Positions 52,653 through 56,306 are shown, counted from the stretch's first letter. The stretch is 64,000 bases of DNA from an uncultured delta proteobacterium (GCA_963792825.1 CAWBXS010000002.1:455198-519197); one strand, 5' to 3'. Numbers and translations: made by a program. The notes: a model not told the origin generated them from the sequence alone.

Positions 52653-55600
52653 ATGAGGGCACGTTGGGCGCCGGGGTTAACTGCTTGCTTGGCTCTTGCG
52701 GCATGTAGCCTGGCGAGCAGCCAGGCGGGTGCGCAGTGCGCACTCACGTGCGCTGCGATCGTTCCGGGCTGCAATCCTGTGACCTGTCCTGGCGGGGCGT
52801 GCTTTGGAACGGCCGGACCCGACTGTATCAACGGCACCGCTGGCAACGACACGATCTTTGGTCTAGGCGGAGGCGATTGTATCTGCGCAGAGGGTGGCGA
52901 CGACACGGTATTTGCCGGGGCGGGAGATGACTTCGTTTTCGGAGGACCTGGCACGGACAACATCAACGGCGAAGCGGGGGCTGACAATCTCTTCGGCGAA
53001 GACGGCGGAGATGTGATTAGCGGCGGTGATGGCCCGGACTTCCTGTTTGGTGATGCGGGCAGCGACATCCTCTCCGGAGATGCAGGAGACGACCAGCTCT
53101 TTGGCGACGCAGGTGACGACACCCTCAATGGAGGAGCGGATAACGACACGTTGTTCGGCGGAACCGAAAACGACACCCTCAACGGAGGAATAGGGAACGA
53201 CTCTTTGTCGGGTCAGGCGGGAGCCGACATCTTGCGCGGCGATGACGGTGACGATCAGCTCAGCGGCGGCACCGAGAACGATCAGCTCTTCGGTGGAAAC
53301 GGGGCGGACAGTCTCTCCGGCGATACGGGCGACGACCTCGTCAACGGGGAAGCCGGCGACGACCCTCAGCTCGACGGCGGCGACGGAGAAGACACGATCA
53401 ACGGTGGAGCCGGCAACGATACGGCCAACGGAGGCCCCGGGCTCGACTTCATCAGCGGCGGGCCCGACAACGACACCCTGAACGGCGGCGATGGTCCGGA
53501 CTTGATCAATGGAGACGGCGGAGACGACGTGATCAACGGTAATGCTGACAATGACACGCTCGACGGGGGGGTCGGCATCAACACCGTGAACGGTAACGCC
53601 GGCTACGATCGCTGCCTCAACTTTACATTTACGGACGGCAGCTGCGAGCTCCTGACCCACGCAACACTCGAGTCGTTCAGCGCGTTCGAGGCAAACGGTG
53701 CCGCCGTCGTTCGCTGGGTGACCTCGTCCGAGACCGGTACCGTCGGGTTTTACCTATACCGCGAGCTCGACGGTGAGTGGGAGGCTGTCCACGAGGGGAT
53801 TCTTCCCGGATTGCTCGACGCGCCTCAGGGAGGCGTCTATGACTTCCGCGACGACCCGGCCCGCACGGGCGCGTCCGAGCGATACCTCTTGGTCGAGGTG
53901 GATCTGCAGGGAGTGCAATCCAGCCACGGGCCGTTCGACGTGACCTTCGACTCGACCGGCGAGACGATCCTCGAAGGAGACGCTCGCTACGCCCGGCAAC
54001 CGCATCCCCTGAGCCCGATCGTGCAAAGCTTGAAAGCCGCCGACTCGGAGAGGCAGCGAGCCGGAGATGCCGTCGCGCTCTACCTCGGGGTCGAGGCGAC
54101 CGGGCTTTACGCGGTGAGCGCTGCCGAGGTCGCCGCACGCCTCGGGCTCGATGAAACGATGGTGCGCGATCGGATCCAGACTGGCGAGCTCCTGCTCACC
54201 GAGGAGGGCCAGCCCGTTGCCTGGAGCGGCTCGACGGATGGTGCGGAGCTCCGGTTCTTCGGGAGGGAACGGGAGAGTCTCTACACGACCGAGCGAATCT
54301 ATCGCCTCGCACCGGACACGGGCATCGTCATGGCGGAGCAGTCTGCGGCGCCCGGCACACTCACCGACGGCCTCACCTATGAAGCGACACTGCACCTCGA
54401 GGAGAACGAAATCCCGGGGGTGCTCATCGGTCAGGACCCGGATCAGGACTATTGGTTCTGGCAGTTGATCTCGGCTGCGCCCGCGATGCCGCAAACGGCG
54501 ATGGTCACGTTTGATCTCGAGGCCGTCGCCGGGGGCGGGAATCTACGCGTGGACCTGCATGGCATCTCGGGCGAGGTGCATTCGGTCGACGTACGCCTCA
54601 ATGGCGCGCTCGTCGGTACGACCCAGTTTGAAGGGGTCATACCTCATTCCGCGACGTTTTCTTTTCCTCAGGCGGACCTGCGCGAAGGCGAAAACATCCT
54701 CTCGATCGAGCCGAGCGAGCCCGGCGACAGCGTCCTCTATCTCGACTCCGCGGACGTGAGCTACACGCGTGGATATGCGACCGTCGAACCTTCTCTGCTC
54801 TTCCGTGGGAGTCAGGACGCATCGATCGAGGTGACCGGCCTCACTGGAGAGGATCCCGAGCTTCTCGATGTGACAGACCCCCTGCGACCCACGATGCTCA
54901 CCGGCACGGTCGCAACGCCTACAGGGCTGCAACTCAGCATGGAGACGGACCACGAGTACTTCGCGCTCACCGCCACGGAAGTGCGCATTCCAAGCTCGAT
55001 TTGGAACGACGTGCCGTCGAACCTGCGGAGCTCTGCGAATTCAGTGAGCTACCTCGTCATCGCACCAACCGGGCTCCTCGGCGGAGCGCAGGAGCTAGCC
55101 GACTACCGCGAGGCCGAGGGGCTCGTCTCGATGGTCGTCGAGCTGCAGGACATCTACGATGAGTTCGCGTTCGGCACTCCGGATCCGAACGCGATTCGGG
55201 CATTCCTCGCCTACGCGCACGACCATTGGGCCACCGCCCCCGAGTTCGTGGTGCTCGCGGGCAAGGGGTCACTCGATTACCGCGACATCCTAGGTCTCGG
55301 TGGAAACCTTCTTCCTCCCCTCATGGTTCGGACGCCCGCCAGCCTCGTCTCGTCCGATACCAGGTACGCGGACTTCCTGGGCGACGACGGCCTTCCAGAC
55401 GTCCCACTCGGGCGTCTGTCCGTGACTTCCGAGGCCGAGCTCGACTCGATCGTTCAGCAGATCATCCGCTACGAAGACTCGATCGACGCCGTACCCAACG
55501 ACATCACGCTCCTTGCGGATGCAACCGTTCCAGAGGGCAATTTCGGTGCCGCGAGTGACTCCGTGATCGACGTGCTTCCGAACGACTGGACTGCCACTGC

Positions 55601-56306
55601 CGTCTACCGGTCCGAGTTGGGCGACTTGGAATCGACGCGCGCGCTCTTCTTCGATGAAGTTCGCAAAGGACCGAGGATGGTCACCTACCTCGGTCACGCC
55701 GGAATCACCTCGCTTGGACTCAAGGAGAGTCTGTTCGGCATCCAAGATCTCGAGACGATGACGATCGACGGTACCGAGCCGGTCTTCGCCGCCATGACGT
55801 GCGTGACGTCTCGCTTCGAAGTTCCCGGGCTCGTTTCCCTCGGCGAAGCCATGTTGATCGACGAGGAAGGGGCCATCGCGGTCTGGGGCCCGTCCGGTGT
55901 GTCGATCAACGAGCAGGCCACCATGCTCACGAAGGCGCTGGTCGATGAGCTGAGCACAGGTGGCGAGACACGACTCGGGCCGATGGTCACCCGTGCATTT
56001 GGCGTAGTGGCCGACTTGGAGTTCGGCCGCGACATGACCGCGATCTACAACTTGCTTGGCGATCCAGCGTTGCGTGTCGGGAAAGCAGATGATTCCTCCG
56101 GAACGGGCGGCTCCGGCGGTGCCGCCGGCGCGGACGGAAGCGGTGGCGACTCTGAAAACGGCGGCTCGATCCCACCGGAAGCGGGTCTCAACCTCTCCGG
56201 GTGTAACGTGGGTTGGTCCGAACCGGGCGGGAATGGCGGGTGGCTCCTGCTGCTGACCGCGGCCCTCGCTCTTGGTTTGCGGCGGCGCCGCCGCCTTGGA
56301 CGATGA
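52653..56306 (+). CDS. giant secreted protein: Cys-rich N-terminus + 29 RTX (GGxGxD) nonapeptide repeats + beta-rich middle + C25/gingipain-like peptidase domain + MYXO-CTERM-like tail
   Basis: ATG 52653 follows GGGGAGA. Signal peptide MRARWAPGLTACLALAACSLASSQAGA. The RTX block spans 52833-53618. The C25-like region spans ~55044-56080 (YLVIAPTGLLGGAQELADYREAEGL, IYDEFAFGTPDPNAIRAFLAYA, EFVVLAGKGSLDYRD). It has the His in TYLGHAG (55695-55697), the Cys in AAMTCVTSRF (55800-55802) and LLGDPALRV. The tail reads [35 protein letters not shown]. Confidence 0.8.
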   Translation: MRARWAPGLTACLALAACSLASSQAGAQCALTCAAIVPGCNPVTCPGGACFGTAGPDCINGTAGNDTIFGLGGGDCICAEGGDDTVFAGAGDDFVFGGPGTDNINGEAGADNLFGEDGGDVISGGDGPDFLFGDAGSDILSGDAGDDQLFGDAGDDTLNGGADNDTLFGGTENDTLNGGIGNDSLSGQAGADILRGDDGDDQLSGGTENDQLFGGNGADSLSGDTGDDLVNGEAGDDPQLDGGDGEDTINGGAGNDTANGGPGLDFISGGPDNDTLNGGDGPDLINGDGGDDVINGNADNDTLDGGVGINTVNGNAGYDRCLNFTFTDGSCELLTHATLESFSAFEANGAAVVRWVTSSETGTVGFYLYRELDGEWEAVHEGILPGLLDAPQGGVYDFRDDPARTGASERYLLVEVDLQGVQSSHGPFDVTFDSTGETILEGDARYARQPHPLSPIVQSLKAADSERQRAGDAVALYLGVEATGLYAVSAAEVAARLGLDETMVRDRIQTGELLLTEEGQPVAWSGSTDGAELRFFGRERESLYTTERIYRLAPDTGIVMAEQSAAPGTLTDGLTYEATLHLEENEIPGVLIGQDPDQDYWFWQLISAAPAMPQTAMVTFDLEAVAGGGNLRVDLHGISGEVHSVDVRLNGALVGTTQFEGVIPHSATFSFPQADLREGENILSIEPSEPGDSVLYLDSADVSYTRGYATVEPSLLFRGSQDASIEVTGLTGEDPELLDVTDPLRPTMLTGTVATPTGLQLSMETDHEYFALTATEVRIPSSIWNDVPSNLRSSANSVSYLVIAPTGLLGGAQELADYREAEGLVSMVVELQDIYDEFAFGTPDPNAIRAFLAYAHDHWATAPEFVVLAGKGSLDYRDILGLGGNLLPPLMVRTPASLVSSDTRYADFLGDDGLPDVPLGRLSVTSEAELDSIVQQIIRYEDSIDAVPNDITLLADATVPEGNFGAASDSVIDVLPNDWTATAVYRSELGDLESTRALFFDEVRKGPRMVTYLGHAGITSLGLKESLFGIQDLETMTIDGTEPVFAAMTCVTSRFEVPGLVSLGEAMLIDEEGAIAVWGPSGVSINEQATMLTKALVDELSTGGETRLGPMVTRAFGVVADLEFGRDMTAIYNLLGDPALRVGKADDSSGTGGSGGAAGADGSGGDSENGGSIPPEAGLNLSGCNVGWSEPGGNGGWLLLLTAALALGLRRRRRLGR
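52833..53618 (+). repeat. 29 consecutive 27-nt (nonapeptide) hemolysin-type Ca-binding repeats
   Basis: Counted by hand from GTAGNDTIF through GNAGYDRC. One unit is 10 aa long. Confidence 0.85.

Follow-up and report, generated by a model that had tools for sequence, protein, structure and literature searches.

An RTX beta-roll, a PorU-like C25 peptidase core and a MYXO-CTERM-type tail in one predicted surface protein of an uncultured delta proteobacterium

A window of 64,000 nucleotides from the genome of an uncultured delta proteobacterium (GCA_963792825.1 CAWBXS010000002.1:455198-519197) was analyzed; positions below are counted from its first nucleotide unless another contig or locus is named. 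An open reading frame (ORF) at 52653-56306 on the plus strand has a stop-free translation of 1217 residues. A first-pass annotation, made from the DNA sequence alone, had described the product as a combination of RTX calcium-binding repeats, a gingipain-like C25 peptidase domain and a MYXO-CTERM-like tail. The ORF and each motif quoted in that annotation were found in the translation, and the domain search it had proposed recovered both PF01364 (Peptidase_C25) and PF00353 (RTX) with Pfam. The observation is real and the domain-level description is correct; the accompanying view that the protein mixes three export paradigms is wrong. The protein, from an uncultured myxobacterium, is a conserved, automatically annotated and experimentally unstudied variant of the C25/PorU kind.

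The C25 catalytic domain occupies residues 800-1144 (55050-56084, plus strand). PF01364 matched residues 800-1142 over the whole of its profile (positions 1-374 of 374) with E=1.3e-62 and 212.6 bits against a cut-off of 23. The predicted catalytic residues, His1015 (codon at 55695-55697, plus strand) and Cys1050 (codon at 55800-55802, plus strand), are invariant in alignments of 50 and 53 sequences with identities down to 26%, and phmmer aligned them to His211 and Cys244 of RgpB. The catalytic dyad is intact, and the domain is predicted to be an active peptidase. AlphaFold2 (AF2) modeling of residues 330-1217 gave a predicted local distance difference test score (pLDDT) of 89.5 and a predicted template modeling score (pTM) of 0.87. 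From the N-terminus, the model consists of a beta-sandwich, a poorly ordered linker, an alpha/beta domain, two beta-sandwiches, the catalytic alpha/beta domain, a disordered Gly/Ser stretch (about residues 1148-1195, pLDDT 29-42) and a terminal helix. Four accessory domains thus precede the catalytic one (53661-55049, plus strand; assigned from AF2, Foldseek and NF033707): a beta-sandwich at residues 337-450, an alpha/beta domain at 475-565 and two beta-sandwiches at 576-790. The linker after the first of them, residues 451-474, has low AF2 confidence and is conserved.

Comparison with known structures revealed that the best match in the Protein Data Bank (PDB) by phmmer was PorU (6za2, E=4e-9), with gingipain R (1cvr) at E=4e-3. 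In Foldseek, PorU 6za2 was aligned across 811-819 columns of the 888-residue model, i.e. over the whole core, with E=5e-30, while the alignments to RgpB and Kgp (E=1e-17 to 1e-13, TMt 0.60-0.67) were confined to the catalytic domain. The NCBIfam model for PorU, a type IX secretion system (T9SS) sortase, NF033707, matched residues 614-1142 with 179.5 bits, far under its cut-off of 420. The core of about 810 residues is closer to the T9SS sortase PorU than to gingipains. The gingipain-like C25 assignment stood, with a full-length PF01364 match, the His/Cys pair and a caspase-like alpha/beta fold; the structure prediction that had been suggested as a check gave a confident core, which Foldseek placed with PorU, RgpB and Kgp.

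The kinship with PorU bears on function. PorU ligates T9SS cargo to anionic lipopolysaccharide (A-LPS), and the protein described here might be a PorU-like processing enzyme. Surface proteins of its own cell would then be the targets of a C-terminal signal peptidase, transpeptidase or sheddase, which might for example cut the Gly/Ser linkers that precede MYXO-CTERM tails or ligate cargo to a surface glycan. Such a function is favored by PorU being the best match by PDB phmmer, by NF033707 and by fold over the 810-residue core. The distance of the NF033707 score from its cut-off argues against it, and so does the lack of T9SS signatures: no Por_Secre_tail, the T9SS C-terminal domain (CTD), appeared in the Pfam or NCBIfam output for the protein, and the T9SS pore SprA (SprA_N) had no match in the genome (4.44 Mb in 5 contigs, 99% complete), a weak negative, since control genomes were also silent. 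Together with the distribution and gene neighborhoods described below, this makes a PorU-like role unlikely, though worth keeping in view.

The N-terminal part of the protein starts with a signal peptide, residues 1-27 (52653-52733, plus strand), which was assigned by eye together with an A-x-A↓Q cleavage motif that is kept in orthologues. An N-terminal lipoprotein signal was considered and rejected, also by eye: the LAAC and LTAC motifs are unconserved in orthologues, in contrast to A-x-A↓Q. A Cys-rich N-terminal cap follows (residues 28-60; 52734-52832, plus strand; AF2 pLDDT 87-95); it contains six Cys, with two more in RTX unit 2, and is conserved in orthologues. Next comes an RTX beta-roll of 29 nonapeptides (residues 61-322; 52833-53618, plus strand), which was assigned from PF00353 (11 matching stretches, E=2e-49 in Pfam), a table of repeat phase and AF2. 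The repeats had been reported as 29 uninterrupted nonapeptides; the count stands, the continuity does not, since 20 in-phase nonamers are followed by one additional residue in a conserved DDPQLDGG and then by nine more units. The roll is closed by a C-terminal cap (a Cys321/Cys331 pair, assigned from Cys positions) and a flexible hinge with pLDDT 55-68 (53619-53660, plus strand). In total the protein has 14 Cys. The signal peptide contains two of them, the N-terminal cap and RTX unit 2 together eight, and the remaining four are Cys321, Cys331, Cys1050 and Cys1184.

In a second AF2 model, which covers residues 29-1150 and rests on the 53-sequence alignment (the first rests on the 50-sequence one), the RTX block forms one regular beta-roll with a short strand per nine residues and pLDDT of 94-98. 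A lower-confidence hinge, residues 324-336, connects the beta-roll with the core, and pTM dropped from 0.87 to 0.69 once the roll was included. Orthologues have between about 12 and 38 RTX units. None of them lacks the final ten, whose conservation (0.74, versus 0.57-0.62 in the earlier units) equals the level of the catalytic domain. A search of a library of viral structures returned generic RTX as the only match.

The strong PF00353 signal and sub-threshold matches to RTX toxin models are the only points in favor of type I secretion, as in a classical RTX exoprotein. These toxin models reached just 108-131 bits against cut-offs of 1000-2000. The protein has an N-terminal Sec signal, its repeats are N-terminal as well, and it ends in a membrane helix and Arg cluster; neither ATP-binding cassette (ABC) nor membrane fusion protein (MFP) genes are present among the neighbors of the gene. 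Type I export can be set aside with near certainty. As modeled, RTX here is a structural beta-roll and not a type I secretion signal.

The first-pass annotation had named a misassembly, for example inside the repeat block, among the things that would refute its description, and an assembly artefact or a chimaeric ORF arising there was considered. RTX units are only 66-70% alike at the DNA level and the GC content is even along the whole gene, which makes collapse or chimaerism within the block unlikely. Furthermore, 42 orthologues from independent assemblies align colinearly over the full length and have the identical single-residue irregularity in the repeats. An artefact thus has almost no probability. 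The start codon is likely the ATG at 52653. A longer frame is possible from a TTG at 52569, to which orthologue starts give no support; the ATG is preferred because a Shine-Dalgarno-like GGGGAG, read directly from the sequence, lies 3 nt upstream of it (52644-52649, plus strand), and because orthologues share an M-K/R-x-R-W beginning of the signal peptide.

Downstream of the catalytic domain, a disordered Gly/Ser-rich tether (residues 1145-1183; 56085-56201, plus strand; AF2 pLDDT 29-42) leads to a MYXO-CTERM-type tail, which together with the stop codon occupies 56202-56306 (plus strand) and was assigned from TIGR03901, orthologues and the AF2 helix. It consists of Cys1184 (56202-56204), a hydrophobic helix at about residues 1196-1215 and a terminal RRRRR. 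The tripartite form (Cys, transmembrane (TM) helix, Arg cluster) of the MYXO-CTERM-like tail claimed earlier is therefore present, but the curated TIGR03901 cut-off of 20 bits was missed, with scores of 18.1 bits for the whole protein and 19.6 bits for the tail alone. All RTX-C25 orthologues (42 of 42) have at their end G-C-x-(V/I)-G followed by a hydrophobic helix and a run of Arg. Two regular-expression scans of the genome found at least 15 ORFs with such tails, all three C25 paralogues included. Ten of the tails were scored with TIGR03901: one was above the cut-off (25.9 bits), and three, including that of the protein under study, scored 18.9-19.6 bits. In the lineage with MrtC-type myxosortase, TIGR03901 seems to recognize too few MYXO-CTERM tails, as most of the 15 or more G-C-x-V...TM...RRR tails are below its cut-off. 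One of these tails belongs to a minus-strand ORF of the window with its stop at 38147.

Candidates for the corresponding machinery were sought in the genome. Among seven CPBP-family proteins one is the myxosortase MrtC (NF040594, 241.2 bits against a cut-off of 195; contig C5 of the genome, near 446 kb); MrtC, as defined by Haft (bioRxiv 10.1101/2023.06.07.544157), is the myxosortase of the Chondromyces type. The type II secretin GspD is also encoded (485 bits against a cut-off of 351). GspK (PF03934) had no match in the genome, with a model that was unspecific in controls. The genome contains a second C-terminal sorting system as well: a 542-residue exosortase-CPBP fusion on contig C2, around 1164622-1164900 (plus strand), scored 220 bits with TIGR04162 (exosortase E / VPEID-CTERM; cut-off 150). 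In the model for TraA of M. xanthus, export by Sec is followed by helix retention in the inner membrane, Cys lipidation, myxosortase cleavage and type II transfer to the surface (PMC11980579). By analogy, every sequence feature of the C25 protein fits this model.

By sequence, the only sorting route encoded for the protein is Sec export with MYXO-CTERM/myxosortase MrtC and type II secretion. This does away with the proposed mixture of three export paradigms: neither RTX nor the C25 fold is an export determinant, the repeats are N-terminal and follow a Sec signal, and the protein lacks a T9SS CTD. Nor is C25 a module bound to T9SS: of 201 Myxococcota genomes 62 have it, and its cluster representatives number more than 4000.

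We estimate at roughly 0.7 the probability that the gene encodes a lipid-tethered, calcium-stabilised cell-surface cysteine endopeptidase of family C25. The first-pass proposal of a calcium-dependent, surface-tethered protease agrees with the domains, the folds, the tail and a genome that encodes MrtC and GspD; from these features the protein is predicted to be lipidated, located at the surface, dependent on calcium and proteolytically active. Sec would export the protein via its N-terminal signal peptide, with cleavage at A-x-A↓Q, and the C-terminal helix and Arg cluster would retain it in the inner membrane. Cys1184 would then be lipidated and the helix removed by MrtC, and type II secretion would carry the protein, in folded form, to the outer membrane's external face. 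The tether of about 40 Gly/Ser-rich residues would keep the His1015/Cys1050 domain close to the membrane, with the accessory domains and a rod of about 70 Å, made of the 29 Ca-binding RTX units with disulfide caps at both ends, pointing outward. The rod may serve as a calcium-stabilised structural or binding module.

Several points weigh against this reading. The drop of pTM to 0.69 means that the orientation of the modeled rod relative to the core is left unfixed by AF2. The tail is sub-threshold in TIGR03901, and processing by a myxosortase has been demonstrated experimentally only for MrtX of Myxococcus xanthus. Propeptide_C25 (PF08126) was not matched in Pfam at E<=0.1, where PF01364 and PF00353 were the only families found, so a latency mechanism would lack the gingipain-type propeptide. 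Finally, the closest characterised relative by both sequence and fold is PorU, a signal peptidase/transpeptidase and not a digestive protease. That the protein is an endopeptidase with external substrates is for this reason a default assumption, and the PorU likeness, combined with the position of the core behind adhesin-like passengers, leaves room for two less likely readings: the processing or transpeptidase role set out above, and self-processing, considered below.

Orthologues of the same architecture, for which the first-pass annotation had suggested a search, form about 60 clusters (at 90% identity) with the same length and RTX+C25 content and with 43-71% identity, from metagenome-assembled, Polyangiales-type genomes of Myxococcota. 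Their database names include "C25 family cysteine peptidase [Polyangiales bacterium]", "MYXO-CTERM domain-containing protein" and "Ca2+-binding RTX toxin-like protein". In the literature we found nothing that links C25 peptidases, or gingipain-like enzymes, to Myxococcota/myxobacteria or to MYXO-CTERM. An exhaustive search with the core only, at E<=1e-30, returned 4219 cluster representatives. The best 98 matches to the full core are 824-6315 residues long and 70 of them end no more than five residues past the C25 domain; exceptions, with 50-70 additional residues, include the Myxococcota RTX-C25 group. Passengers ahead of the core are usually adhesin-like and very variable. From this search and these lengths it follows that, at the level of sequence, the core is a widespread C-terminal module behind variable passengers, with the MYXO-CTERM tail as a lineage-specific addition. 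Acidobacteriota-type relatives of the core (P0066, P0069, P0073, P0076, P0080 and P0085) end a few residues past LLGDPALR, with a Pro/Gly stretch leading to a final ...G-E (GTGE, GPGE, SPGE), which could be an unrecognised short C-terminal motif.

The nearly always terminal position of the core of about 810 residues behind variable passengers would also suit self-processing. Here the clan-CD peptidase at the C-terminus would cleave the protein itself, in the hinge or linker, and thereby free or mature the RTX or lectin passenger, the product being a shed Ca-binding adhesin. Autoprocessing is established for other domains of clan CD, among them the C80 cysteine protease domains in MARTX toxins, and the protein has a flexible hinge at 324-336 and a low-confidence conserved linker at 451-474. 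However, no cleavage motif was identified, there is no structural evidence of a chain segment in the active site, and the conservation of the hinge and of the final ten RTX units, as high as that of the catalytic domain, suits a stable interface at least equally well. We consider self-processing improbable.

The same genome encodes two paralogues on contig C4, both of which retain the PorU-like core and a MYXO-CTERM tail. One, of 1755 residues (57070-62337 of that contig, plus strand), has four C-type lectin domains (Lectin_C) and DUF4215 Cys-rich repeats; the other, of 1099 residues (512885-516184, minus strand), has a short RTX block. In another genome of the same genus, G017, the counterparts of both are 5 kb apart. 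Since four lectin domains occupy the RTX position in a paralogue, the N-terminal part may be an exchangeable binding or spacing module, which would aim or space the protease. PorU retains its own T9SS sorting domain (PMC11285876); the presence of the local system's sorting tail on all three paralogues is a parallel that speaks for a PorU-like processing role.

The distribution of C25 speaks against it. In the Myxococcota sample C25 was found in 62 of 201 genomes, in 47 of 142 genera, and in nine of the 12 genomes of this genus, whereas MYXO-CTERM is reported to be universal in Myxococcota (PMC11980579). With a distribution this patchy, a C25 enzyme cannot be a core component of MYXO-CTERM sorting. 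As a bolder variant, the PorU-like core may be a module that processes or ligates surface proteins, or its own passenger, without T9SS, and that in Myxococcota was captured by the MYXO-CTERM pathway and lipid-anchored at the outer membrane. We regard this as a speculative and rather unlikely proposal; if it were true, the anchored core would be comparable to PorU at the T9SS attachment complex.

Upstream of the gene, and divergent from it, lies a HAMP-PAS sensor histidine kinase gene (50539-52479, minus strand; HAMP, PAS_4, HisKA and HATPase_c in Pfam), as the first-pass annotation had stated. Seven orthologue contexts fell into three unrelated synteny groups. The group of the window, with a housekeeping backbone, has the order kinase-rph-rdgB, C25, pyrG-dinB; in the second, C25 lies between an unknown protein of 500-530 residues and TldD/PmbA; in the third, between a GMC oxidoreductase and RecBCD. 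Adjacency to the kinase is kept only in the first group (loci L011 and L019) and is missing from the other two. The kinase is taken here as a neighbor of the protease gene, with no regulation of the protease implied. A conserved operon or partner gene was considered and rejected: the three contexts are unrelated, the neighbors of about 530 residues are mutually non-homologous, and the paralogues adjoin nuo and other housekeeping genes (by eye). In L011, the closest relative on a long contig, a phage-type integrase gene (5312-6394) is located directly past rdgB.

Between the C25 gene and pyrG, the window carries at 56324-60835 (minus strand) genes for a Wzx flippase, a WbsX glycosyltransferase and a Cys-rich Dicty_CTDC lipoprotein. 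The same slot contains different genes in L011 (13639-19498; sulfotransferase, Wzx, hexapeptide transferase), and in L019 (12511-14166) the polysaccharide cassette is absent. A functional tie to polysaccharide genes finds no support in this subfamily, as the cassette is a variable insertion. In three other loci, from one orthologue group (L012:15737-19445, L013:16317-19058 and L020:15737-18458), a DegT aminotransferase gene is found just past TldD/PmbA, downstream of C25, along with genes for a hexapeptide acetyltransferase and a GFO_IDH oxidoreductase. This trio resembles WbpE/D/B, and the WbpE/D/B pathway is the source of the PorU acceptor sugar in P. gingivalis. That some orthologues are thus only two or three genes away from a Wbp-like trio counts in favor of a PorU-like function; the unconserved neighborhood, with its three synteny groups and a variable polysaccharide insertion that L019 lacks, and the location of the paralogues among housekeeping genes count against it.

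To our knowledge, experiments on family C25 have been limited to the gingipains of Porphyromonas and to PorU, both of which are tied to T9SS. A calcium-stabilised surface endopeptidase of the kind proposed here would be a PorU-like enzyme in a lineage without sign of T9SS, routed via the myxosortase/type II pathway, itself only recently characterised, and fused to a Ca-binding rod. A protease would join the cargo list of MYXO-CTERM sorting, and the gene offers a defined entry point into a superfamily that is uncharacterised and comprises over 4000 sequence clusters. No new secretion principle is involved, and the family is already named in public annotation.

With serralysins and HlyA/CyaA-type toxins the protein shares the GGxGxDxLx nonapeptides and, as predicted, a regular parallel beta-roll. 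Unlike in these proteins, the block is N-terminal, disulfide-capped and predicted to be Sec-exported; the protein has neither a type I signal at its C-terminus nor ABC/MFP/TolC genes next to its own. The gingipains RgpB and Kgp (1cvr, 4ief, 4rbm) have the same caspase-like C25 fold (TMt 0.60-0.67) and a His...Cys dyad in the same order. They differ from the protein by their Propeptide_C25 and by what surrounds the catalytic domain: here the accessory domains are upstream, and a disordered linker, rather than an Ig-like domain or CTD, comes directly after. Asp163, which determines the Arg specificity of RgpB, aligns by phmmer to Ser in a local AASDS and so is not obviously conserved.

The likeness to PorU extends over accessory beta-sandwiches and the C25 domain, which align over about 810 residues (Foldseek E=5e-30), makes PorU the best sequence match in the PDB, and includes a "TC" context of the catalytic Cys and a sorting signal of the enzyme's own system. 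At the same time identity is 15% and NF033707 stays at 179.5 of the 420 bits required. The protein lacks the T9SS CTD and a PorV/PorZ/PorQ context, and the genome gave no SprA match (with a silent control); it adds an N-terminal RTX rod and has a MYXO-CTERM tail in place of the Ig-like domains and CTD of PorU. Compared with TraA-type MYXO-CTERM proteins of Myxococcus xanthus (PMC11980579), it has G-C-x-V-G and not GCGC, falls just below the TIGR03901 cut-off and has a protease as passenger, and the cognate myxosortase belongs to the MrtC (Chondromyces) type, with processing assumed by analogy. What it has in common with them is the signal peptide, the disordered linker, the invariant Cys, the TM helix and the terminal Arg cluster, in a genome that encodes a cognate myxosortase and GspD.

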